Both the position numbers and the translations under genes were made by a program. The notes beneath the pieces were generated by a model. The model did not search any database. It was not told where the DNA came from and worked only from the letters and a program-made list of their open reading frames with translations. Of a stretch of DNA of 64,000 nucleotides, positions 28,248-40,663 are shown piece after piece. The DNA is taken from positions 22,618 through 86,617 of the forward strand of contig JAJVHX010000022.1 in assembly GCA_022072405.1 (NCBI GenBank), in the 5' to 3' direction. Source of the stretch: Phycisphaerae bacterium (GTDB taxonomy: Bacteria; Planctomycetota; Phycisphaerae; UBA1845; CAIVHJ01). The first letter of the stretch is position 1, and each line of letters starts with the position of its first letter.

Positions 28248-29926
28248 TCAATGAAACCCCTAACCTGCGCAAACCCACCATACTCATCATTGATGATGAC
28301 GAAATATTCGTCGAATTACTCAGCGACGAATTGAATCCCTATTTCGTAGTGGAATGGGCGCGGGATAGCCGGACTGCGTTACGCGCTATCGAACGGCAGA
28401 CGCCGGACTGCATTTTTCTCGACCAGAATCTGCCCGATCTGCTCGGGGTGCAGCTGATAGATGAAATTCGTAAGCTCGGCTGTGCCACGCCGGTTGTCAT
28501 GCTCACGGCTTCGCAGGATGTGCGCGTCGCTGCCGGAGCCATGCGCGCCGGCGCCGTCGATTTCGTGGTCAAGGATATCAATGAAGCGTTTTATGAAGAT
28601 CTGGTTCCCACTGCGATACGTGCAGTAGAAAAATGGAACAATGAGAAGGAACTGGACTACCTTCGAGATCAACAGCAGGAGCAGAACTCTCGAACATTGC
28701 AGTTGAACAACGAATTGGTGCAGAAAAACCGGGAATTGGAGCAGGCCTACGAAGACATAGCCGCCGCAGGTCAGCAACTGCAGAAGAAAAATCAACGCCT
28801 TTCGGAACTGTATGACACGGCGCATCGCTTTGTCGATAACGTGTCACATGAAATGCGCACACCGCTGACCGTGATCAAGGAATTTCTGGCGATTGTCATG
28901 GATGGCCTCGCCGGACCGATCAATGATCAGCAGGGCGAATATCTCCAGATTGCCATCGCCAAGACCAATGATCTGGCCCAGATGGTTGAGGATATGCTCG
29001 ATATCAGCAAGATTGAAGCCGGCCTGTTGCGGGTGGACCGCCAATGCTGTCAGGTCAACGACATTGTCTGCAGTATTCACCAGATCCTGGAACAGAAATC
29101 GCGCAGTTACCATCTGGAATTAAATTTTGAAGCGCCTGCTGATCTGCCTCCCGTCTACTGCGATCAGGAAAAAGTGGGACGCATTTTAATCAATCTGGTA
29201 GTCAATGCCATGAAGTTTTCACCGGAGGGCAGCCAGGTCCGGGTCTGCTTCCAATTGGCTGACACGAACGATGAAGTGCTGGTTAAGGTGTGCGATAATG
29301 GACCGGGCATTAGCCCGGAGCACCTGGAAGTCATCTTTGATCGCTTTCGCCAGGTGGGCGAGGGAACGCGCACCAGCACGAAAGGCTTTGGCCTCGGACT
29401 CAGTATCGTGCGCGAACTGGCCAACCTGAATCTCAGCGATGTTCGGGTCCAGAGTACCGTCGGTCAGGGCAGCACCTTCAGTTTTTCTCTACCGGTGTAT
29501 AACCCCCTTAAAATTATTGATCGATTCCTTCAACGTCATCATACCTATGCGCATCATGGTCAGAATCTGACTATCCTGCGCGGCTGGTGCGAACAACCCT
29601 CTCCCGAAATCAGCCAACATATTCGCAGCTTTGTCGTCCACCATTCTTCACCCTATGACCTCTGCCTCGAACAACCGCAACAGGGAATGGTATTGATACT
29701 CACCCTCGTTAATGATCCGCAGTCATATCTGCAGCGCTTATTATTGCATAATCGCGAAGAACTGCGCCTGTCTCCGGGAAGTACCGTGAATTTGAATTTT
29801 GAAATTCTGAAAACCTGGCCGCTGGAATCAAATCGACAGCGCCTGATTCAAGAAATACAAACGTGGGTGCCCGATACCACGATGGAGCAAGCGGATGTCC
29901 TGTCAACGCATCTTTATCGTGGATGA
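28244..29926 (+). CDS. Receiver-histidine kinase fusion (REC, coiled coil, HisKA, HATPase_c, C-terminal extension)
   Basis: REC with DFVVKD; H-box VSHEMRTPL; CDNGPGIS, GFGLGLSIV. 4-bp overlap with the upstream HK. Confidence 0.85.
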   Translation: MINETPNLRKPTILIIDDDEIFVELLSDELNPYFVVEWARDSRTALRAIERQTPDCIFLDQNLPDLLGVQLIDEIRKLGCATPVVMLTASQDVRVAAGAMRAGAVDFVVKDINEAFYEDLVPTAIRAVEKWNNEKELDYLRDQQQEQNSRTLQLNNELVQKNRELEQAYEDIAAAGQQLQKKNQRLSELYDTAHRFVDNVSHEMRTPLTVIKEFLAIVMDGLAGPINDQQGEYLQIAIAKTNDLAQMVEDMLDISKIEAGLLRVDRQCCQVNDIVCSIHQILEQKSRSYHLELNFEAPADLPPVYCDQEKVGRILINLVVNAMKFSPEGSQVRVCFQLADTNDEVLVKVCDNGPGISPEHLEVIFDRFRQVGEGTRTSTKGFGLGLSIVRELANLNLSDVRVQSTVGQGSTFSFSLPVYNPLKIIDRFLQRHHTYAHHGQNLTILRGWCEQPSPEISQHIRSFVVHHSSPYDLCLEQPQQGMVLILTLVNDPQSYLQRLLLHNREELRLSPGSTVNLNFEILKTWPLESNRQRLIQEIQTWVPDTTMEQADVLSTHLYRG

Positions 29927-30290
29927 CGATCGCCAGGTTTCGCTGGCTTTGTGTATTCGGCTGAAAGCCAGCGGATACGATGTGGCTGCGGCTTTTGATG
30001 GTGAATCAGGCCTCCAGCAGATGCGCCAGTATGTCCCGCACCTGGTCCTGTTGGACATCCGTCTGCCCGGAATCGATGGAATCGAAGTGATGCAGCAGAT
30101 GAAACAGGATGGCGATTTATCCCAGATACCGGTGATCTTTGTCTCCGCTAATGCCCAGGAAAAATCACGCCGTGCCGCCTTGCAGGCGGGAGGGCGACTG
30201 TTTCTGGAAAAGCCTTTTGATGCCCGTACGCTTTTGCAGGCGATTCAGAATGTATTGAATGAGCAGCCGCAACCCGGAGCCCATGCATGA
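29895..30290 (+). CDS. Single-domain response regulator (CheY-like REC)
   Basis: REC fold with phospho-acceptor Asp in LVLLDIRLPGIDG. Confidence 0.85.
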   Translation: MSCQRIFIVDDDRQVSLALCIRLKASGYDVAAAFDGESGLQQMRQYVPHLVLLDIRLPGIDGIEVMQQMKQDGDLSQIPVIFVSANAQEKSRRAALQAGGRLFLEKPFDARTLLQAIQNVLNEQPQPGAHA

Positions 30291-31129
30291 ATTCCCCACT
30301 CATTCTGATCGCTGATGACGACCCGATGCTGGTGCGTGTGCTCAGCGTGCGCTGTCAACACCTGGGTTGCGCGATTGAAACGGCAGCCGAGGGGCGGGAA
30401 GTGATCATTCGCATTCATCAGCATCGTCCAGACCTGATCATCATGGATCTCGACATGCCCAACAGCAGCGGTTTGAATATTTACGAAATGCTGGCGGCGG
30501 ATATGCGGTGGCGGACCATTCCGGTGATCATTCTCAGCGGGCAGCGTGATAATCGATCACGGGCCCGCGCGGAAGAACTGGGAGCGCGCTGGGTGACCAA
30601 ATCGCCTGATTGCTGGGCGGAGATTCGTGAGTACATCCAACAGGTCTTACAGCTATCCGGGTCAGGCTGCTATAAAAGCCAGACCGGTGAACAGCTGGTT
30701 GATGAACCGGCAGGTAAATCTGCTGATGCCCGCCCACTGATCCTGGTGGTGGATGACGATCAAGCGGTTTCGCGCGCTATTGATATTCGTCTGGAAGCGA
30801 ATGGTTATCATGCGGTATGTGCGCGCAGTGGCGCCCAGGCCTTATTCCTCGCCCAGGAACGAAAGCCGGCGCTGATCACTCTCGACCTGGGGTTGCCGGA
30901 AATCGATGGGTTGCAGCTCCTGCGTAGCCTGCGTGATGACCCAGCCACCCAGTCGATTCCCGTGATCGTGTTAACCGGCAATACCCAGACGCAGGTACGG
31001 GAAGAGTTTCAGCGGTTGGGAGTGGCTGCCTTTATGACCAAGCCATTCAGTACCCGCGATGTTTTGCGCCGGATTGAAGAGATACTCGGCATGGCCGATC
31101 TCACCGTTCAAAAAGGAAAGTTGTCATGA
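30287..31129 (+). CDS. Response regulator with two tandem REC domains, no output domain
   Basis: Two REC units (LIIMDLDMPNSSG; LITLDLGLPEIDG). Confidence 0.8.
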   Translation: MNSPLILIADDDPMLVRVLSVRCQHLGCAIETAAEGREVIIRIHQHRPDLIIMDLDMPNSSGLNIYEMLAADMRWRTIPVIILSGQRDNRSRARAEELGARWVTKSPDCWAEIREYIQQVLQLSGSGCYKSQTGEQLVDEPAGKSADARPLILVVDDDQAVSRAIDIRLEANGYHAVCARSGAQALFLAQERKPALITLDLGLPEIDGLQLLRSLRDDPATQSIPVIVLTGNTQTQVREEFQRLGVAAFMTKPFSTRDVLRRIEEILGMADLTVQKGKLS

Positions 31130-31956
31130 CGACATCAACAGCCCTGCTGGTCAAACGCATCCTGATTGTTGACGACGAGGAAAATGTCGTCCGCGCTTTG
31201 GCCATTCGTTGTCAGCAGCTGGGACTCCTGGTCGACAAAGCCAATAACGCTCTCGAAGCCCTGACCATTCTCAAACGAGAGCCGATCCCACCGGACCTGT
31301 TGCTGCTGGATTTTAATATGCCCGGTGCCGATGGCTTGACCCTCTGTGATATGTTGAAAACGGATACCACTTTGGCACCGCTGCCGGTGATTCTGCTGAC
31401 CGCCTATGATAATGACCAGATTCGTCGCCGTTGCGAAATGCTGGGAGCCTACTACGTCCGCAAAGATGTCGATGCCTGGAAACAGCTCCAGAAAATCATC
31501 TCGCGATTGCTGGATTTACCGAATGACGCATTACCCGAGTCAGCCGTCCGCTATGAACGCTCCCATGAACCTGCATCTCCCGCAACGTCTGCGGGAAAAA
31601 TACTGGTTATTGATGATGATCCGATGATGATTTCGATGCTGAAAACGCGATTAAAACATAATGGTTATCAGGTTATTTCAGCCATGAGCGGCATGCAGGG
31701 TTATTGGTTGGCCATCAAGGAAGAGCCGGATCTCATTTTGCTCGATTTCAAAATGCCCAATGCCTGGGGAAACACGATACTTGGAAAACTGAAATCAGAC
31801 CCGCTCACCCGTAAAATTCCTGTGTATATCGTCTCGGGCATTTCCGACCTTGGTTTACAGCGCGATGTGCTGCGTCTGGGGGCTATGGCGTGGATTACAA
31901 AACCATTTGATAGTGGCGAGTTACTTAAAATTATTCAAAAGGAATTGGCACGATAG
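31126..31956 (+). CDS. Response regulator with two tandem REC domains, no output domain
   Basis: Two REC units (LLLLDFNMPGADG; LILLDFKMPNAWG). Confidence 0.8.
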   Translation: MTTSTALLVKRILIVDDEENVVRALAIRCQQLGLLVDKANNALEALTILKREPIPPDLLLLDFNMPGADGLTLCDMLKTDTTLAPLPVILLTAYDNDQIRRRCEMLGAYYVRKDVDAWKQLQKIISRLLDLPNDALPESAVRYERSHEPASPATSAGKILVIDDDPMMISMLKTRLKHNGYQVISAMSGMQGYWLAIKEEPDLILLDFKMPNAWGNTILGKLKSDPLTRKIPVYIVSGISDLGLQRDVLRLGAMAWITKPFDSGELLKIIQKELAR

Positions 31957-32035: not shown

Positions 32036-32731
32036 ATGACAGCCTATATCAAAATCGAATACATATTCACTTTTTCTGATCGGAGCAAAGTTAGCCATCT
32101 TGTCATTATTGACCCCGAATCTTTGGAATTGGTTGAAGACGAGGTGCCGACCGATGCATGGTGCCGGCTGGAAAATCATCAGTGCCCCAATTGCCCTTTA
32201 AATAATCAACATTCCTTTTGTCCAGCAGCACAAAGTGTCGCCATGATGGCGAAGTCATTTACCGGCTGTCATTCCTATGATCCGGTTCAGATCACTGTTA
32301 ATACTTCCAGCAGGACCATTTCTCGGGAAGGTACTCTTCAGGAAGGGATACAATCCCTCATGGGCCTGCGAATGGCAGCAAGTGGCTGTCCCGTCATGGA
32401 AAAACTTAAACCAATGGTCCGCTTCCATCTACCGTTTGCAGATACCAGCGAAACCATCTATCGGGCCATTTCCATGTATCTGGTCAGTCAGTTCATCCGC
32501 ATGAAAAAAGGATGGGCGGCTGATTTTGATTTGAATGATTTGCAATCCATTTACGAAGATATTCATCAGCTCAATCTGGCATTCAGCAAGCGGCTTCGAC
32601 AAGCCAGCGAAGGAGACGCCAACGTGAATGGAATATGTATACTTGATATTTTTGCCCAGCAGATTCCCTGGGGAATTGAACATGCCCTGGATGACCTGCA
32701 ACCCATTTTCAATCCCTACTTACATCCCTGA
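32036..32731 (+). CDS. Hypothetical protein (231 aa) with a CxxC plus scattered Cys/His, no recognised domain
   Basis: Intact ORF with good coding bias, 80 bp downstream of the phosphorelay operon. Confidence 0.45.
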   Translation: MTAYIKIEYIFTFSDRSKVSHLVIIDPESLELVEDEVPTDAWCRLENHQCPNCPLNNQHSFCPAAQSVAMMAKSFTGCHSYDPVQITVNTSSRTISREGTLQEGIQSLMGLRMAASGCPVMEKLKPMVRFHLPFADTSETIYRAISMYLVSQFIRMKKGWAADFDLNDLQSIYEDIHQLNLAFSKRLRQASEGDANVNGICILDIFAQQIPWGIEHALDDLQPIFNPYLHP

Positions 32732-32876
32732 AATATTACACAACTCAATATAGTAGTATTTTGAACATATTTGACGAATTCTACTTCTAACGTCATATTT
32801 CTGTAGCTGTACATCTCCCAATGTCCATGTCTGCCTGGTCGGAGCCATGGAAGTTATTCCTCTGGTAAGGATATTT

Positions 32877-33080
32877 ATGGAAGGCACAGTCAAGTGGTTC
32901 AATGATGCCAAGGGATTTGGCTTTATCAAACCGACCGATGGCGAGCAGGAGGTATTTGTCCATCACAGCGATATCGTGGCTGATGGCTTTCGCAGCCTGC
33001 AGGAAAATGATCGCGTGGAGTATGACCTGGTCAAGGGAGATAAAGGTCCCAAGGCCGTCAACGTTCGCAAGATCGGCTGA
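32877..33080 (+). CDS. Cold-shock protein (CspA family, S1-like CSD)
   Basis: MEGTVKWFNDAKGFGFI...VFVHHSDI, the RNP1/RNP2 motifs of CspA. Confidence 0.9.
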   Translation: MEGTVKWFNDAKGFGFIKPTDGEQEVFVHHSDIVADGFRSLQENDRVEYDLVKGDKGPKAVNVRKIG

Positions 33081-33159: not shown

Positions 33160-34470
33160 TCAATACATGGCGGAGTGGAGTGGTGCGGCATGTTGTACCG
33201 GATTTGCAGAACTATCCGCCACAGCAGCATTCGATAAGTTGGGCAGGCTTAAAGTAGCCCGCGTGCCGCCTGGCGACGGACAGCACAACGTCAATTCACC
33301 CCCTAAAGTCTGGGCGATACCATAAGAGATAGATAATCCCAGGCCGGTCCCCTGGCCGGGTGGCTTGGTGGAGAAAAATGGCTCAAATACACGGCTGAGA
33401 TATTGGCGAGGTATTCCGCAGCCGTAATCGATAACATCAATATGTAACCAGTTCAATTCGTTACGAAATTCCACCGCGATCGGCCCGCGCTGTTCCGTTG
33501 CGTCGGCTGCATTGACCAGCAGGTTGACCAGTATCTGGCTGATACTGCCGGAATCGGAATGAATGGTTAAAGGAATAGGCCACGGCTGGAATTTTATTTC
33601 CAGCTGTTTCATCTTGGAGAGTGAGGTCACGAAGCGAATCGCTTGTTGTATGGCTTCGTTTACGTTGATGGGAGTAAGTACCGCGGGTTGGCGCCGGGAA
33701 AGACGCAATAAGGATTCTACAATCTGGCTGCACTGGTGTACCTGCTGACTGACTTCATTGATACACTCTAGCACTTCCGACTGATGTTGTGACAGAGATT
33801 CGGGAAGCAGGATCAGATCCTTGGCTAAGCCAACCTGGCTGGCGATCGCCGCCATGGGATTATTGATCTCATGGGCTACCCCCGCAGCCAGCTCGCCGAT
33901 GGCGGCCAGTTTTTCGCTTTGTCGAACCCGTTGCTCCAGTTGCTTTCGATGGGTCAGATCACGACCAATACAGACAATAGCCGGGGAATGTTGCCGGAAT
34001 GATTTTAATTGAAACAGCGTGACCAGGTGAATTCGCTCATGACCATTTTCCAGCCGCTGAGTGATTTCGCCGCTCCATTGTTCATTTTGTGTGATGGTGG
34101 TAATCAGTCGGTCCCGGTCATCAACCGTCAGGCCGATTCGCGTCAGATTCTCATGGCCGGATGGTGTTTCGGAAAAGCCAAAGGCCCGCTGGGCGCTATG
34201 ATTGGCGTAGAGAATATGTCCAGTTGCGGTAGAAATCACGATTGCATCGGTACTATGATCAACCACATTTCCGAGTTGTCTTTTCTCGGTTTCTTCGCGA
34301 CGATAATCCTCATCCCAGCGGATGACCGCGTAGAGCAGGAGCGCAATAATCAAGGCCACCGCCGTACCGCTTAACAGGGCCCCGAAGGGACTCAGTTGTG
34401 TCCAGGCTGCTGACTGAGCCGTCAGCAACAGAAAAACCATGATGGGTAATGTCTTCTTAATCACCCGCAT
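33160..34470 (-). CDS. Membrane PAS sensor histidine kinase
   Basis: 2 TM, PAS domain, H-box AAGVAHEINNPM, HATPase G-boxes DYGCGI, GTGLGLSI. Confidence 0.85.
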   Translation of the reverse strand: MRVIKKTLPIMVFLLLTAQSAAWTQLSPFGALLSGTAVALIIALLLYAVIRWDEDYRREETEKRQLGNVVDHSTDAIVISTATGHILYANHSAQRAFGFSETPSGHENLTRIGLTVDDRDRLITTITQNEQWSGEITQRLENGHERIHLVTLFQLKSFRQHSPAIVCIGRDLTHRKQLEQRVRQSEKLAAIGELAAGVAHEINNPMAAIASQVGLAKDLILLPESLSQHQSEVLECINEVSQQVHQCSQIVESLLRLSRRQPAVLTPINVNEAIQQAIRFVTSLSKMKQLEIKFQPWPIPLTIHSDSGSISQILVNLLVNAADATEQRGPIAVEFRNELNWLHIDVIDYGCGIPRQYLSRVFEPFFSTKPPGQGTGLGLSISYGIAQTLGGELTLCCPSPGGTRATLSLPNLSNAAVADSSANPVQHAAPLHSAMY

Positions 34471-35021
34471 AGCAGTTCAAACCACATCAAGTAAATGGCA
34501 CTCTTCTCTCATTGGAAATATACGTTACGAAGTAAGCAGTATCGAAATGCTCCCAGTGCAGCTGACTGATTACGAGACAGTTCGACAGACGTAAGTGTAT
34601 GATTATGATGCAGATGCGACATGTTAATCTAGGCAGTAGCCGATGAGTTATCGTCCTATGTCCATATTCGACAAATAATTATATCAATCGTGATCACAAT
34701 GTTCAGCTCGGTATCAAATGTGCTATAGATCAAATGAACGGAGTCGGCTGATCCCCATACCGACCGGGGTGCAGCAGTCATTGTGAATTCTTTCGTACTA
34801 TCAGCCAGGATGACCCACCTGGCTGATTCTGTTTTATGAATTGTTAAATTTCACTTATCAAGCGGTTAGCTATTGCCAGAACCTGCCGGAATTCACTAAT
34901 ATACCAGCATCTGAAATAACCCTAATGGATATAGTCACAATCAAGTGTTAACGTTTGGTTAATATGCGTTTTTAGCTTCTACGCTTGAGTTGTTGAGTTA
35001 CCAGCAGAAAGGATGAGGCAT

Positions 35022-35336
35022 ATGAGTAAAAAGGAAGTAAATATAAAAGGTCATGTCGACCTGGCTCAGGCGATAGCTTACCTGGAAGACCTGGTCATCA
35101 GCTTGAAAAGTGGCACGATCTGTGTGCAGAACTGTGAGGATTATGTTACCCTCAATCCGGCCAGTGGCTTGGAAATGGAAGTTGAAGCCAAGCATAAGGG
35201 GGAGAAGGAATCGCTCACAATCGTACTGAACTGGCAGACACAGAAGGAAGAAACTGAGAAACGCATGGAATTGCGGATCAGCTCGACCCAACCTGTGACC
35301 GCCGGTGCCACGGACGACGAAGATGAGGATGATTAG
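35022..35336 (+). CDS. Small 'amphi-Trp'-like domain protein with strongly acidic C-terminal tail (…GATDDEDEDD); first gene of the GAK-like cassette
   Basis: About 105 aa. Conserved Trp embedded in LTIVLNWQTQKEE; resembles the amphi-Trp domain as I recall it. SD aggatgagg upstream. Confidence 0.55.
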   Translation: MSKKEVNIKGHVDLAQAIAYLEDLVISLKSGTICVQNCEDYVTLNPASGLEMEVEAKHKGEKESLTIVLNWQTQKEETEKRMELRISSTQPVTAGATDDEDEDD

Positions 35337-35414
35337 GACTGTAGTCCTCATCCCATTAAATTCCCATCTCCAACTGCGGCGCACCCATATTCCTGCCCAG
35401 CTGAGTCTGATACC

Positions 35415-36722
35415 ATGTCGGCTGACAGCCGTCATGAATTAGCTGACCGCACTGGGCCGAACTCTACTTCACCCATCCGGCAGCTGGGCGGAATCGGCAG
35501 CAGCATTATTCGATCGGGGAGAGGCTATCAATTTCCTTACGGTGGTCTTGTGGCGAAGAAAACCAGCGAAAAACAACATGGTGCAACATTGCTTCCATCG
35601 ACCCTCCGCAGTGGTGCTGAAGAGATAACCGAGTGGGATCAGCAAACCTATCTGAAATTGATTTCCGTTGATCTGACTCCCGAGCAGGAAAATCGCATCA
35701 CGCATACCGACCAGATCTATCCGCGCCAGGAGGCGGTTCTGGCGGTCCACTGGCATCCGGAGTTTGTACCGCTGCAGCCGATTCGCCAGCGACTACAGAC
35801 CATGTTTCCCAGCCGCCAGACGGAACTGATTATCCCCACGCAGCATAATATTCTACAGAGCTACGACGACTTCAGCGGTGTGGAAGTAGACTGCTATTCA
35901 ACCAGTTTTAATCGCAAAGTACAGCTGCTGATTCATTTTCATCGCCCGCGCATCGATCAGGCGGATGTTTTTAAGAGCATGCTGTTGCACACTTTTCAGT
36001 ATCGTTCCCGTCAGCTCTTCGAGTTTATTGAAACGATCATTAATCCGCTGTACGAAAAGCGATTACAACGGGCTGCCGATATTACTGGCGCGGATGAGGA
36101 TCTGGTGGAATTCACCCGGCTGCACACCGTCAAATTGAAAAAACTATACCTGCGTAATGAGGGTATCACACCGGCACAAGCCATCAAGAATAAACTACTG
36201 TCGCAATATTTTGAGACGCTCATCGACCTGTTTGATGAACATCTGGTTCATCATGCCTTGTTGCTGCTGCGCTCGGTCAAGGAAATAGTAAAAGCCAATT
36301 TCAACCTGGAATATTTTTATCAAACCGAGGAAATCATCGAGGAGGTTCGGGCTTTGGGCGGCGGAATTGTCATTCCCCATCCCGAGCAATTTTGGCCGAT
36401 CCTGCTGGCTGAATACGATGTGGATGGTTACGAAGTCTGGAATCCGCAGTCGCGTGATTATACCGAATTTCTGATTCAGGTGGTCGATCGTCAGAACCGT
36501 TCACCGCTCAGCCGCAAACGCCCGCTGCTGATCTTTATGGGTGATGATTGTCACATGGGTGAAAAGGTCAAGGAACCGCGTTATCAAGATCCCGAAAAAG
36601 CGGGGCGCGAAGTGGGCGTACAACCTGCCTGGGATGATCTGGCGATTCGCAAGAGTCTGATTGTAGCCAATTGCGATCGCCGCACGGTAATTGAAGAATA
36701 TCGCCAGCGCCTGCTGGCTTGA
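35415..36722 (+). CDS. Hypothetical 435-aa protein of the cassette. Candidate 'XXXCH'-type GAK component (C-terminal MGDDCHMG)
   Basis: Long intact ORF translationally coupled to the next gene. No known catalytic motif recognised. Confidence 0.5.
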   Translation: MSADSRHELADRTGPNSTSPIRQLGGIGSSIIRSGRGYQFPYGGLVAKKTSEKQHGATLLPSTLRSGAEEITEWDQQTYLKLISVDLTPEQENRITHTDQIYPRQEAVLAVHWHPEFVPLQPIRQRLQTMFPSRQTELIIPTQHNILQSYDDFSGVEVDCYSTSFNRKVQLLIHFHRPRIDQADVFKSMLLHTFQYRSRQLFEFIETIINPLYEKRLQRAADITGADEDLVEFTRLHTVKLKKLYLRNEGITPAQAIKNKLLSQYFETLIDLFDEHLVHHALLLLRSVKEIVKANFNLEYFYQTEEIIEEVRALGGGIVIPHPEQFWPILLAEYDVDGYEVWNPQSRDYTEFLIQVVDRQNRSPLSRKRPLLIFMGDDCHMGEKVKEPRYQDPEKAGREVGVQPAWDDLAIRKSLIVANCDRRTVIEEYRQRLLA

Positions 36723-36736
36723 GGAAGGATGGCATC

Positions 36737-37027
36737 ATGGGCCCAGCCGCTCGCGAATTTCAGCACGATTCCTTTCAGGACCGGGAAACCATCGTGCACT
36801 ATTTATCCGCGCTGGGCGAAGCGTTTCGACAGGGACAACTGGTCCTCTCCTCGCAGGGTGAGGATTTCCTGATCGATGCTCCGGGGCTGATGCGCTTTAC
36901 CGTTCGGGCCCGGCAGCGGGGGGATCGGGCGCAGATGGTACTGAAATTCAGCTGGAAGAACCGTATTAAAAATGACGATTTTCGCGTCGGGCCGATCTCT
37001 CCGCGGCGCGAGGATGAATCGCGCTAA
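36737..37027 (+). CDS. Second small 'amphi-Trp'-like domain protein. ATG at 36737 preferred over the TTG at 36719
   Basis: Shares the pattern seen in the first small protein (…LKFSWKNRIKND). Strong SD gaggaagga before ATG 36737. Confidence 0.5.
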   Translation: MGPAAREFQHDSFQDRETIVHYLSALGEAFRQGQLVLSSQGEDFLIDAPGLMRFTVRARQRGDRAQMVLKFSWKNRIKNDDFRVGPISPRREDESR

Positions 37028-37030
37028 CCC

Positions 37031-38665
37031 ATGTTCAAACTGGACGGCATAGAGAAAAATTTTAAATTCATGACCTGGGAGGTCACCAAGCAGGTGGAGT
37101 TGACCTATCGGATCATGGATCAGCCGTCGCGCGGCCTGATTCGCAAAATTCTCTCCAGCGACAACTATATCGATACGATGAAAAGCCTGATCGAAAAGAA
37201 GTGCCTTTCCTATTACCGCAATCATCCCACCATAGATAAACAGACCGCGGATACCATCCGGGCGGTGACCGTCGTCGCAACCAACCTGGAAAAAATTGCC
37301 GATTATTGCTCCAACATCGCCAATAGCATGCAGAAAATGGATGATTCCGCCTTCATGGCGCGATTTGAATATCAGCCCTATTTTGAGCAGATTCTGCGGG
37401 CTTTGGAGGTGGTGCCGCCTGCTTTCGATGAACGTGATTCTGCGAAGGCCATCAAGATCTGCCAGTACGAGACACATCTCAACAAGTTGTATGAAGCGGA
37501 CTACGAACGAGTCCGCCTGGCCATGCGCCTGGGGCGCGACACGGATAATCTGCTTATCGCCTTGCGGATCCTGCATTATCTGGAGCGCATGGGCGATGCG
37601 CTGCTCAATATCGGCGAAGCCATTCTCTTTGCCCTGTCCGGCGAAAAAATGAAGTATCATCAATATGTCTCGCTGGATGAGGCGATGCATACCGCCAATC
37701 CGCAGACGGAAAATTATTCCGTTGATTTTAAATGGGAGACCCGATCGGGAGCACGGATAGGCAAAGTGGCTGATCATTCTGCCGAGAGCAACGGCGGCGA
37801 AGCGATTTATAAGGAGGGGGCCGCCGACAAACTCCGCCGTGAACGCGACAGCATCCAGCAGTGGAATACGTTCTGGCCTGGCCTGCCGCCGAAGGTGCTG
37901 GAATATCGCGAGGGCAACGGAGATGCTTCATTGCTGCTGGAGTTTCTGGATGGCTTCACTTTCCAGGAAATGATCCTGAATGCTGATCCCGACATGCTGC
38001 TCAGTGCACAGAATTGCATTCATCAGGTGCTGCAGAAAATATGGACCACTACGCTCGAAAATCAATCCATCAGCACCAATTATATTGGCCAATTGCAGGA
38101 GCGGATCGACGATGTATTTCGCGTCCATCCCAATTATCGCCGCACCCGCCAGCGGCTCGGCCGGCTGGAGATCGAGTCCTTTGAGGAATTGCTGATCCGG
38201 GCTGGTGAATTGGAGACTCAGCTGCCGGCGCCGTTTTCAGTATTTATCCACGGGGATTTTAATATCGACAACATCATCTATAACCCCCGCCACGAGCGCG
38301 TCCATTTTATTGATCTTTATCGCTCCAAACGCTGGGATTACGTGCAGGATGTATCGGTTTTTTTAATTTCCAATTACCGCATCCCGATTTTCGAGCCGCG
38401 CCTGCGTCAGCGTTTGAATGTCATCATGCAGACTTTTCTGGAATTCACCCGTTCAGTAGCCCGGCAGCTGCCGGACCATACCTTTGATGCCCGGCTGGCC
38501 TTGGGCCTGATCCGATCGCTGGTCACTTCGACGCGGTTTGAACTGGACAGCTGGTTCTCGGGCCAGATGTATCATCGGGCGATTTACCTGCTGCATAAGC
38601 TGATAGACCATCATGACCGACCCTGGTCGGAATTCAGGATTGTGGACGACGTGCTGATTTTTTAG
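37031..38665 (+). CDS. Fusion protein: N-terminal PhoU-like domain (two PhoU repeats) plus C-terminal aminoglycoside-phosphotransferase/protein-kinase-like fold
   Basis: PhoU repeat signatures NYIDTMKSLIEKKC…TNLEKIADYCSNIAN and LRILHYLERMGDALLNIGEAI. Kinase-like Brenner motif FIHGDFNIDNIIYNP and downstream FIDLYRS…D. Confidence 0.6.
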   Translation: MFKLDGIEKNFKFMTWEVTKQVELTYRIMDQPSRGLIRKILSSDNYIDTMKSLIEKKCLSYYRNHPTIDKQTADTIRAVTVVATNLEKIADYCSNIANSMQKMDDSAFMARFEYQPYFEQILRALEVVPPAFDERDSAKAIKICQYETHLNKLYEADYERVRLAMRLGRDTDNLLIALRILHYLERMGDALLNIGEAILFALSGEKMKYHQYVSLDEAMHTANPQTENYSVDFKWETRSGARIGKVADHSAESNGGEAIYKEGAADKLRRERDSIQQWNTFWPGLPPKVLEYREGNGDASLLLEFLDGFTFQEMILNADPDMLLSAQNCIHQVLQKIWTTTLENQSISTNYIGQLQERIDDVFRVHPNYRRTRQRLGRLEIESFEELLIRAGELETQLPAPFSVFIHGDFNIDNIIYNPRHERVHFIDLYRSKRWDYVQDVSVFLISNYRIPIFEPRLRQRLNVIMQTFLEFTRSVARQLPDHTFDARLALGLIRSLVTSTRFELDSWFSGQMYHRAIYLLHKLIDHHDRPWSEFRIVDDVLIF

Positions 38666-38691
38666 CGAACACTAACCTCAAGGAGCGACCC

Positions 38692-39564
38692 GTGCGAATC
38701 GGCGTGATTGGTATCAAGGATGGATGGTCTTCGCATCAACTGGCCGATGCCCTGGCCAAGAAAACCGGATTCCACTGCCTGATTAATATGGATGAAGTGG
38801 TCCTGGATCTGGAAAGCGGTCATGCCTATTACCGCGATCTGGATTTGGCCACACTCGATGCCCTGGCGATCAAGAAGATCGGCGCTCCTTATTCTTCCGA
38901 TCTGCTGGATCGACTGGCAATTCTGCAGTTTGTGCAGCGGGCGGGGGTGCGGATGTATTCCGATCCGGGGCGGATCGAGCGTCTGCTCAATCGTCTCAAT
39001 TGCACTTTGTCGATGCGTCAGGCGAATATTCCTCTGCCACCCACGACCATCACGGAGAATATCGCGCAGGCTGAGCAGGTCGTGCGTCGCTATGGTCGAG
39101 CGGTACTGAAGCCGCTCTATACCACCAAAGCTCGTGGTATGACGATGTTGACCGTTGAGGATAATATTCGTCCGGCACTGGAACAGTTTCGGGATGCCGG
39201 CAACACCGTCCTTTACATTCAGAAAATGATGAATCTGCCTGGCCGGGATATGGGGTTGGCTTTTCTGGGTGGTGAATACCTCGGCTGTTATGCACGCGTG
39301 CGCAGCAAAGGCTCCTGGAACACGACAACTCACTCCGGAGGAACGTATGAAGCATTCGATCCGCAACCGGCCATTATCGAACTGGCTCTGCGCGCTCAGG
39401 AACCGTTCGGATTGGATTTCACCTGTGTTGATATCGCTGAAACGGATCAGGGGCCGGTAGTATTCGAAGTTTCAGCCTTTGGCGGATTTCGTGGTTTGCA
39501 TGAAGCTTGTGGCCTGAATGCGGCCGAGTTGTTTGCTGATTATGTGATCGCGCAGGCCAGTTAA
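38692..39564 (+). CDS. ATP-grasp ligase (RimK/CofF/MptN-like alpha-L-glutamate-ligase family)
   Basis: RimK-like N-domain and ATP-grasp core (RYGRAVLKPLYTTKARGMTML…TCVDIAETDQGPVVFEVSAFGGFRG). Confidence 0.75.
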   Translation: MRIGVIGIKDGWSSHQLADALAKKTGFHCLINMDEVVLDLESGHAYYRDLDLATLDALAIKKIGAPYSSDLLDRLAILQFVQRAGVRMYSDPGRIERLLNRLNCTLSMRQANIPLPPTTITENIAQAEQVVRRYGRAVLKPLYTTKARGMTMLTVEDNIRPALEQFRDAGNTVLYIQKMMNLPGRDMGLAFLGGEYLGCYARVRSKGSWNTTTHSGGTYEAFDPQPAIIELALRAQEPFGLDFTCVDIAETDQGPVVFEVSAFGGFRGLHEACGLNAAELFADYVIAQAS

Positions 39565-39574
39565 GGGGCAGTGC

Positions 39575-40663
39575 ATGACCCACATTGATACGCTCATTGA
39601 TCGATTGCTGCAGGAACAGCCGGTGACGGAGGCGATCAATCTCTCGTTCGCCAACTGCACGATCCGGGTGCAATCTGATTCTTCAACTTTAATCACGCAG
39701 TTGAGACGATACTATGAACCGTTCGTGACCTCCGTTGATCACCCGGAAATAATTATTACCGCATTAGAGCGGCCGGAGGTGGATTTGAAGCTGACTTACC
39801 AGCCTAAAGCACCGGAACCCAATAAGCCTAAAATCAAGGAAGAATACGTAGATCTGCCCGGTGGACGTGTGGTTCGTAAACGGCTGACCGGGATGCATTT
39901 TATTTTTGGCGGCGGGCGGCACCTGACGATAGGCCCCTGCGTCGCGAATGACAATCAGGTTATCAATTTCATCAACAACCGTTTCATGGCCTGGAAACTG
40001 CGACAGGGATGTCTGCTCTATCATGCGGCCGCAGTGGCCACGCATGGCCGGGGGGTGGCTTTGTCGGGTTTTTCCGGCATGGGTAAATCAACATTAGCAT
40101 TGAAGATTATGAGTCTGGGGGCTGATTTTGTCAGCAATGACCGGCTGATGGTGCAGGGAACGGGGCCGACACGTACTATGTTTGGTGTTCCCAAACTGCC
40201 GCGCATCAATCCGGGAACTATTCTCAACAATCCGAATCTGTTGCAACTGCTGACGCCGGAAGAACAGCAGCGCTTTTCCGCACTCAGCCGAGATGAATTA
40301 TGGAAGCTGGAACACAAATATGATGCCTATATCTCGCAGTGTTTCGGTCCGGGACGTTTTCATTTGCAGGCGGAGATGCAGGGGCTGATTGTGCTCAACT
40401 GGCAACGAAGTTCACAGCCCTTGCAGATCCGACGCGTTGATCTGGACCGGCGGCAGGATTTGATGCCGGCTTTTATGAAAAGTGTCGGCTTGTTTTTCGG
40501 GGCTGACCCGGAAGAATTCACTCTGGAGGCACCCGCCGAGCATTACCTGGCGCAACTGGTGAAGCTGCCGGTCATTGAATTGACTGGTGGCGTGGATTTC
40601 GGCCAGGCAGCGGAATGGGTCTGGCGGACGATGCAATCTGGAAACTGGTCAGCGCTAACATGA
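39575..40663 (+). CDS. HPr-kinase-related P-loop kinase (HprK C-terminal-domain-like)
   Basis: LHAAAVATHGRGVALSGFSGMGKSTLALKIMSLGADFVSNDRLMV parallels the HprK motif HGV…GVLI.G.SG.GKSE.AL.L…G..LV.DD. Confidence 0.75.
   Translation: MTHIDTLIDRLLQEQPVTEAINLSFANCTIRVQSDSSTLITQLRRYYEPFVTSVDHPEIIITALERPEVDLKLTYQPKAPEPNKPKIKEEYVDLPGGRVVRKRLTGMHFIFGGGRHLTIGPCVANDNQVINFINNRFMAWKLRQGCLLYHAAAVATHGRGVALSGFSGMGKSTLALKIMSLGADFVSNDRLMVQGTGPTRTMFGVPKLPRINPGTILNNPNLLQLLTPEEQQRFSALSRDELWKLEHKYDAYISQCFGPGRFHLQAEMQGLIVLNWQRSSQPLQIRRVDLDRRQDLMPAFMKSVGLFFGADPEEFTLEAPAEHYLAQLVKLPVIELTGGVDFGQAAEWVWRTMQSGNWSALT

Follow-up and report, generated by a model that had tools for sequence, protein, structure and literature searches.

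The GAK system, represented by the families TIGR04354 to TIGR04358, is defined by gene neighborhood only. Parts of it resemble several better-described systems, namely the poly-alpha-glutamylation of ribosomal protein S6 (RpsF) by RimK, the LysX/ArgX ligases with their carrier LysW, a small acidic protein that is ligated at its C-terminal Glu (PMC12998189), the ligases MptN and CofF together with CofD, and the HPr kinase HprK/P, homologs of which phosphorylate the C-terminal Ser of lasso-peptide precursors (PMC8498205). Here, we analyze a GAK locus in a 64,000-nucleotide stretch of DNA from a Phycisphaerae bacterium (contig JAJVHX010000022.1, positions 22,618 to 86,617; hereafter the window), in which a first-pass annotation had read two small amphi-Trp-like proteins as the substrates or carriers of a neighboring RimK-like ATP-grasp enzyme, the first of them having an acidic C-terminus. 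Comparison across 160 GAK loci reveals two classes of amphi-Trp protein, an accessory type-2 form (T2) and a core type-1 form (T1). The acidic end of T2 is not a conserved RimK- or LysW-type acceptor, and its core paralog T1 has no acidic tail.

The cassette lies on the plus strand at positions 35022-41904, where seven tightly packed genes form a single operon, with 78 nt between the first two genes, later gaps of at most 26 nt and one pair overlapping by 4 nt. Its genes, together with two segments of T2 that matter below, are as follows:

35022..35336, plus strand: T2 (type-2 amphi-Trp) protein, 104 amino acids (aa), assigned by TIGR04354, PF20068, and type-specific hidden Markov models (HMMs) with alignment
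35277..35285, plus strand: residues I86-S87-S88 of T2, picked out by column conservation in the T2 alignment
35304..35333 (to 35336 with the stop codon), plus strand: acidic C-terminal tail of T2, GATDDEDEDD, read directly from the sequence
35415..36722, plus strand: protein X, an open reading frame (ORF) of 435 aa, predicted to be a divergent PHP-family phosphoesterase
36737..37027 (frame also open from 36719), plus strand: T1 (type-1 amphi-Trp) protein, 96 aa, ending in SPRREDESR, assigned by TIGR04354
37031..38665, plus strand: fusion of two PhoU repeats with an APH/EcKL kinase (PhoU-APH kinase), 544 aa, assigned by PF01895, PF01636, and PF02958
38692..39564, plus strand: GAK-system ATP-grasp ligase, 290 aa, assigned by TIGR04356
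39575..40663, plus strand: HprK-related kinase B (HprK-B), 362 aa, assigned by TIGR04355
40660..41904, plus strand: GAK-system CofD/YvcK-like protein, assigned by TIGR04357, TIGR01826, and PF01933

The T2 reading frame is open over 35013-35336, and ATG 35022, which is preceded by a AGGATGAGG ribosome-binding site, is its likeliest start, in agreement with the public 104-aa annotation P0241. The start of T1, ATG 36737, is preceded by GAGGAAGGA, and the true start of X is probably GTG 35550, which yields a protein of ~390 aa. HprK-B begins 10 nt past the ATP-grasp stop codon, and the CofD/YvcK-like frame opens at 40615, with a likely start at ATG 40660 that overlaps the HprK-B stop as ATGA. Both small proteins pass the NCBIfam cut-off of 31 bits for amphi-Trp family TIGR04354 (T2, 53.2 bits; T1, 58.2 bits), and T2 also passes PF20068 with 29 bits (cut-off 27), with T1 slightly under it at 23.8 bits. 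The ATP-grasp scores 428.2 bits against TIGR04356, the "GAK system ATP-grasp enzyme" (cut-off 300), covering model positions 1-286 of 287, HprK-B scores 509.1 bits against TIGR04355 (cut-off 200), and the CofD/YvcK-like protein scores 553.3 bits against TIGR04357 (cut-off 340), 106 bits against the YvcK-type family TIGR01826 and 120 bits against PF01933. HprK-B also matches TIGR00679, as well as Hpr_kinase_C over the P-loop region with 28 bits, under the Pfam gathering score of 33.3. The PhoU-APH fusion matches PF01895 with 76.6 bits, PF01636 with 33 bits, and PF02958 with 31 bits. The sequence features listed in the first-pass annotation are thus confirmed: the two terminal sequences and the amphi-Trp-like character of both small proteins are recovered at their places in the window, and the "HprK-like" and "APH-like" kinases are confirmed by TIGR04355 and by the Pfam domains of the fusion, respectively.

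With four of the five GAK marker families above their cut-offs, on one strand and in the consensus order, the locus is a canonical seven-gene GAK operon and a typical copy of a widespread cluster. It differs from the named system in lacking the XXXCH protein (TIGR04358), for which none of the nine window proteins scanned gave a match and to whose cluster no window ORF belongs; T2 lies upstream of X in the slot of this protein. The cassette further adds a PHP-like phosphoesterase with no NCBIfam match and the PhoU-APH kinase, which falls in no GAK-named family. The locus therefore adds a member to the named GAK kind, and no new mechanism is demonstrated.

For the comparative analysis, 25 aligned GAK ATP-grasps were used to collect loci, 80 each from species-representative genomes and metagenomes, with flanks of up to 10 kb, and the ORFs of these 160 loci were assigned using HMMs built iteratively from the window proteins. 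A locus was counted as complete if it retained at least 5.5 kb upstream and at least 6 kb downstream (n=64). A genome scan with one genome per species gave 566 confirmed matches, spanning hundreds of species in more than 10 phyla. The consensus order is X, T1, PhoU/APH kinase, ATP-grasp, HprK-B, an optional CofD-like gene and T2, and is found in Planctomycetota, Desulfobacterota, Nitrospinota, Ignavibacteria, Zixibacteria, SAR324, Spirochaetia, and others. Across the complete loci, the PhoU/APH kinase is present in 64/64 (100%), HprK-B in 62/64 (97%), and T1, between X and the kinase, likewise in 62/64 (97%), followed by X (86%), T2 (70%), and the CofD-like gene (69%). The invariant core accordingly consists of T1, the PhoU-APH kinase, the ATP-grasp, and HprK-B; the phosphoesterase is near-core (PHP-type X here, other families in variant loci), and the CofD/YvcK-like protein, T2, and the XXXCH protein are optional. 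T2 is placed at the 3' end except in the window and six related loci, most of them from planctomycetes, where it precedes X. In at least 31 other loci, the slot just upstream of X, ~3.8 kb before the ATP-grasp, which carries T2 in the window, is held by the XXXCH protein (e.g. L018:6049-6633 and L043:7768-8367, where L numbers denote loci of our set). An amphi-Trp-like domain is found at the N-terminus of some XXXCH copies, L043:7768-8367 among them, and the XXXCH domain itself has a weak similarity to the C-terminus of cytochrome c' (PF01322, 25 bits). Full-text searches of the literature gave no result for "GAK system", "HprK-related kinase", or the gene combination, and PADLOC gave no defense-system match for any of the seven operon proteins.

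Type-specific HMMs and alignment separate the amphi-Trp proteins of the 160 loci cleanly into T1 and T2. The two are homologous across the whole domain (hhalign probability 99.3%) and carry distinct conserved motifs. T1, ~92 aa long in the family, has the near-invariant N-terminal motif F-x-x-[ED]-S-x-Q-D-x-x-[ST] (window nt 36755-36787), with column conservation of 98% for the F, 93% for the S, 93% for the Q, 95% for the D, and 100% for the family's Trp, and it ends a few residues past a "PLxI" strand. T2 lacks this N-terminal motif and instead has a "[LF][KR]-I-[ST]-S-x-E-P" strand after the invariant Trp ("LRISSxxP" in the window), followed by a low-complexity tail. Within T2, I86-S87-S88 is the sole conserved motif past the Trp (I 95%, S/T 90%) and, from the alignment, a candidate phospho-acceptor. 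An AlphaFold2 (AF2) model of T2, built from a two-sequence alignment and of low confidence (predicted local distance difference test, pLDDT, 52), has a helix at residues 14-29, five strands, and disorder from residue 88. A Foldseek search with this low-confidence model returned no match at E < 0.2, and in profile searches of the PDB neither T1 nor T2 found a solved relative, the matches being de novo designs or no better than chance. One T2 match in the PDB, to "Ika8/Ika4" (E 7e-6), was rejected as spurious because designed WD40-type blades were matched weakly and repeatedly. The amphi-Trp protein DITHS69_2464 ranks in the top 20 of the Dissulfuribacter thermophilus proteome by abundance (PMC13490349), which suggests that at least some family members are stoichiometric or structural components rather than trace regulators.

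We then compared the charge of the last 12 residues in T1 (n=106, non-redundant) and T2 (n=86) proteins with a background of 2127 ORFs of at least 200 aa. In T1, the mean net charge is -0.25, and 12% of the proteins reach -3 or below, against 5.6% of the background. The most frequent last residue of T1 is Ser (31%), and the window copy, which ends in Arg, has a "...REDESR" terminus that is not a family trait. In T2, 40% of the proteins reach -3 or below, and 15% carry +3 or more, with K (26%), E (22%), and D (8%) as last residues. The region past the Trp ranges from 7 to 154 aa and is net negative in 74% (median -4), although tails of up to +14 occur in AKP-rich basic repeats, and several T2 proteins stop directly after the last strand. 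An independent sample of 150 T2 representatives, drawn from an exhaustive HMMER search over 1.84 billion proteins, behaves similarly: the last 12 residues are acidic in 36% and basic in 21%, the post-Trp region is net negative in 82%, and the last residue is K in 22%, E in 15%, A in 14%, and D in 4%. Depending on the sample, 19-30% of T2 homologs end in D or E, as do 6/7 of the T2 copies located upstream of X, the arrangement of the window. No terminal residue is invariant in T1 (n=106) or in either T2 sample (n=86, n=150), and a check of the other cassette proteins for a conserved acidic C-terminus that could serve as an alternative acceptor found none. At the family level, the acidity of T2 exceeds chance and is a real tendency, describing a disordered, acid-rich, lineage-variable appendage. 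Conservation of acidic C-termini across GAK loci, which the substrate proposal had named as its test, thus fails for T1 and gives way to a variable end in T2, and the acidic tail of T2 is only weakly supported as a ligase target. The only conserved C-terminal motif of the cassette is an aromatic one in the PhoU-APH kinase, "...LPxxVLxY/F" (window 38650-38665, plus strand), where Y or F is found in 84/137 proteins.

The ATP-grasp falls, as first annotated, in the RimK-related branch, and is 53-61% identical to its homologs. Beyond TIGR04356, it gives lower NCBIfam scores to MptN (143.3 bits), rimK_fam (100.8), LysX (85), RimK (52), and CofF (28.2), all below the respective cut-offs of 350, 143.4, 275.6, 331 (PRK10446), and 300. 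By profile score, the nearest characterized family is hence MptN, a small-molecule alpha-L-glutamate ligase matched over its full length. Among PDB profile matches, the best is LysX 3vpd (2e-23), with 1uc8, 3vpb, and 5k2m also recovered, and RimK (4iwx/5zct) is matched at E 1e-13 with the single sequence and 7e-21 with the profile. No MptN or CofF chain is among these PDB matches. The PDB relatives RimK and LysX/ArgX modify protein C-termini (PMC10092738, PMC12998189). Since MptN is best by profile but LysX, RimK, and ArgX are best in the PDB, homology cannot tell whether the acceptor is a protein or a small molecule. At the metal-binding motif, canonically E-x-N and read as EVN in RimK and LysX, the window enzyme has E259-V260-S261 (nt 39466-39474, plus strand), and E-V-S occupies this position in 115/120 database GAK ATP-grasp homologs. 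The function of the ATP-grasp is not dependent on an acidic T2 tail encoded in cis. The 45 columns that are invariant in ATP-grasps accompanied by an acid-tailed T2 are kept at 99.3% with intermediate tails, 98.9% with basic tails, and 98.7% where T2 is missing (19 complete loci), and HMM scores of the enzyme are indistinguishable among the T2 tail groups.

Set against its characterized relatives, the cassette shares with RimK-S6 the ATP-grasp fold and family and an acid-tailed small protein nearby, but its ligase scores 52 bits where RimK requires 331, has E-x-S at the metal motif, and is accompanied by a small protein that is not S6 and whose acidic end is unconserved. The LysX/ArgX-LysW systems provide the best PDB profile matches and a similar concept of a small acidic carrier; they differ in score (85 against 276 bits), in the C-terminal Glu, which is conserved in neither T1 nor T2 nor the other cassette proteins, in the amphi-Trp proteins, which have no sequence relative in the PDB, and in lysine and arginine biosynthesis genes, which are not nearby. 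With MptN/CofF and CofD, the cassette has in common MptN as the top characterized family for its ligase and a co-encoded CofD-family protein, yet the scores lie under the cut-offs, and the CofD-like protein is YvcK-type and missing in 31% of the loci.

A possible link between T2 and the ligase emerged from charge. The charge of the T2 tail anticorrelates with the net charge of the ATP-grasp (Spearman -0.27, p 0.016, n=77). In Felsenstein independent contrasts, computed on a neighbor-joining tree from the two kinases with tail windows of 8-40 residues, r ranges from -0.22 to -0.35 (permutation p 0.004-0.07), and the same contrasts for the PhoU-APH kinase, HprK-B, X, the CofD-like protein, and T1 give r of -0.14 to +0.04. 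The anticorrelation keeps its sign with two trees and five tail windows, and resides mainly in the N-terminal ~100 residues of the ATP-grasp (r -0.30, p ~0.01). As a background, the charges of cassette proteins correlate weakly and positively with one another (+0.09 to +0.23), and that of T1 shows only this uniform level with the enzymes. None of the 145 individual ATP-grasp columns examined survives multiple testing as a source of the covariation (best p 0.001). In our view, the covariation is weak yet specific and hints at an electrostatic interaction between the T2 tail and the ATP-grasp, which fits docking, regulation, or substrate recognition.

A possible tie to the kinases comes from one Nitrospina sp. 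metagenome-assembled genome (MAG; L019:1013-2446, plus strand), in which HprK-B (residues 2-365) and a T2 domain (360-476) form one 477-aa ORF. This fusion is unique among ~124 HprK-B genes and, as a lone Rosetta-stone case, hints at an association of amphi-Trp proteins with the HprK-like kinase. The resemblance to HprK/P with HPr, and to the lasso-precursor kinases, extends to the P-loop region match, a small protein encoded in cis, and the 31% of T1 proteins that end in Ser; it is offset by the sub-threshold 28-bit score of that match, by the lack of an HPr fold or phosphotransferase-system (PTS) genes, and by the terminal Arg of the window T1.

Protein X is 56-70% identical to 29 homologs from several phyla, a conservation comparable to that of the ATP-grasp. 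It has no Pfam or NCBIfam match at E <= 0.01 and no PDB sequence match, and its PHP kinship is seen by fold only: an AF2 model from 30 sequences (pLDDT 82) displays the PHP (beta/alpha)7-barrel. The invariant residues H112-x-H114, H144, E157, H174, H322, and D378-x-H380 form a putative metal site, their number and order being compatible with the PHP ligand pattern HxH ... H ... E ... H ... H ... DxH. On this model, X is predicted to be a divergent PHP-family metal-dependent phosphoesterase (TrpH/YciV/RNase AM-like) with a helical insertion. In neighbor clustering, X-less loci encode, within the cassette, a SixA-like His_Phos_1+NUDIX fusion, a second His_Phos_1, or an ApaH-like Metallophos protein (e.g. 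L026:13734-14705, L147:9392-10099, L075:13693-15063, and 20+ other loci). Every locus with an in-cassette His_Phos_1, SixA-NUDIX, or Metallophos lacks X, including 12/12 loci with the second His_Phos_1 and 10/10 with the ApaH-like Metallophos. This non-orthologous replacement of X by other phosphoesterases implies that phosphoester hydrolysis is an integral, conserved function of the cassette.

Because T1 is the only non-enzyme in an invariant block with three ATP-using enzymes, we propose that the amphi-Trp proteins are partners of those enzymes, and the reading that we tentatively prefer is that they are phospho-switched and that the T2 tail docks on the ATP-grasp. The amphi-Trp proteins would serve the ATP-using enzymes as substrate or adaptor. 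HprK-B would phosphorylate a conserved amphi-Trp Ser, with T1 Ser11/Thr17 or T2 Ser87, just ahead of the tail, as candidates, and the PHP esterase X would reverse this phosphorylation. The ATP-grasp would join an amino acid, probably Glu, to a carboxylate other than a conserved protein C-terminus, and the T2 tail would act as an electrostatic docking or regulatory element for the N-domain of the ATP-grasp rather than as a universal RimK-type acceptor. The original substrate proposal is partly supported: the partnership between small proteins and ATP-grasp stays plausible, but the acidic C-terminal acceptor, neither conserved nor present on T1, finds little support. Several observations weigh against our preferred scheme. 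The covariation is weak and was sought with several windows and proteins; a single contrast accounts for a third of the signal, and r falls to -0.18 without the three most influential ones. The HprK-B::T2 fusion is a single MAG case and possibly an assembly error through a lost stop codon, and the amphi-Trp fold is modeled only at pLDDT 52, leaving the exposure of the candidate Ser unsupported. No function for amphi-Trp or GAK was found in the literature, where "amphi-Trp" appears once, in a proteomics table. The enzymes may not touch the small proteins at all, as the nearest characterized relative of the ATP-grasp by profile score, MptN, is a small-molecule ligase, and small molecules or nucleotides are the usual targets of APH/EcKL kinases, CofD/YvcK proteins, and PHP enzymes of the TrpH type. 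This last point leads to a different account, rather unlikely though less so than those that follow it, in which the cassette builds a phospho-linked carboxylate metabolite or nucleotide derivative by the logic of F420 and tetrahydrosarcinapterin tails. The kinases, the CofD/YvcK-like transferase, and the ATP-grasp would perform phospho-transfer and then alpha-glutamylation, the phosphoesterases would degrade the product, and the amphi-Trp proteins would be scaffolds, sensors, or regulators. MptN as the best characterized-family match (143 bits), the detection of CofF, and the CofD-family protein in the operon speak for it, and APH/EcKL kinases are typically small-molecule kinases. X resembles PHP enzymes of the pAp phosphatase/RNase AM type, its replacements include the nucleotide-directed NUDIX and ApaH-like Metallophos hydrolases, and the cassette has no conserved protein C-terminal acceptor. 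However, the CofD-like protein is absent from 31% of complete loci and is YvcK-type rather than CofD proper, no further cofactor-biosynthesis genes recur near the loci in neighbor clustering, the constancy of T1, on a par with that of the enzymes, is unusual in an operon of purely metabolic function, and the charge covariation between T2 tail and ATP-grasp is left unexplained.

The model of the first-pass annotation, in which the ATP-grasp extends the T2 C-terminus with amino acids (alpha-linked Glu, as RimK does) or, in the manner of a tubulin glutamylase, modifies Glu side chains of the tail, perhaps after phosphorylation, we consider improbable. It draws on the RimK/LysX family membership of the ligase, all of whose PDB relatives modify protein C-termini, on the net acidity of the post-domain region in 74-82% of T2 proteins, on the D/E termini of 6/7 upstream-of-X copies, and on the charge anticorrelation specific to the ATP-grasp (r ~ -0.3); basic tails are no strict bar to it, since an alpha-carboxylate is present on any C-terminus. 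Yet T2 is missing from 30% of complete loci, in which the ATP-grasp is unchanged, the terminal residue is variable with K the commonest, the tail spans 7-154 aa and some T2 proteins have none past the last strand, the RimK (52 versus 331 bits) and LysX (85 versus 276 bits) scores are far under the equivalog cut-offs, and the catalytic E-x-N is replaced by E-x-S. An equally poor prospect, to our minds, is that the tail is unrelated to the ligase, a generic solubilizing or "entropic bristle" region of an abundant structural or granule-associated protein, with the statistics being noise. Low-complexity, length-variable tails that flip sign, some with AKP-rich basic repeats, would agree with such a role, as would the top-20 abundance of the Dissulfuribacter thermophilus protein (PMC13490349) and the drop of the covariation to r -0.18 once three contrasts are removed. 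It is opposed by the specificity of the anticorrelation for the ATP-grasp among six proteins, with the same sign in two trees and five windows, and by the synteny of T2 with the enzymes across phyla. Finally, the ATP-grasp could be a bacterial protein-tail ligase that adds amino acids, probably Glu, to the disordered amphi-Trp tail or another carboxylate, gated through phosphorylation by HprK-B or the APH-like kinase and erased by the PHP esterase; we think this quite unlikely, the ATP-grasp-specific charge compensation with the T2 tail being its only positive hint. If true, it would constitute a new, widespread, and reversible modification switch for small proteins and would parallel, in prokaryotes, the glutamylation of tubulin tails or RimK-S6.

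The GAK cassette thus combines three ATP-using enzymes with enigmatic small proteins, is widespread, and has a function absent from the literature that we found. Defined here are the division of its amphi-Trp proteins into core T1 and accessory T2, with the conserved residues F-x-x-E-S-x-Q-D in T1 and I-S/T-x-x-P in T2; the membership in the GAK system of a previously unannotated PHP phosphoesterase that is functionally replaceable; and the charge covariation with the T2 tail that the ATP-grasp alone displays. Should the ligase modify the amphi-Trp protein, the cassette would represent a new bacterial post-translational modification system; should it not, the cassette would probably make a novel phospho-glutamyl metabolite.

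The surroundings of the operon include two-component genes. Three consecutive receiver-domain-only proteins are encoded at window positions 29895-31956, a PAS histidine kinase on the minus strand at 33160-34470, and a multi-PAS histidine kinase at 44610-46940; sensor-kinase-type ORFs lie near 27/160 loci, but belong to a generic family. A DUF6901 protein (32036-32731) and a CspE-like cold-shock protein (32847-33080) are also found near the cassette. Directly downstream, at 42000-44316 on the plus strand, follow a PyrK-like Fe-S/flavin electron-transfer subunit (DHODB_Fe-S_bind) and a GltD/dihydropyrimidine-dehydrogenase-like Fer4_20+Pyr_redox_2 oxidoreductase, a pair that is not among the recurrent neighbors in the clustering of the 160 loci. 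Looser recurrent neighbors, each in 10-14 loci, are a ~813-aa GT4 glycosyltransferase (L066:3745-6186, minus strand), whose N-terminus has PHP-like motifs by eye only and no Pfam match, a phosphatidylserine-decarboxylase-like protein (L029:13802-14824, minus strand), and a ~800-aa uncharacterized protein (L029:14781-17186, minus strand). These neighbors hint at a tie to membrane-lipid or glycolipid metabolism in some lineages.

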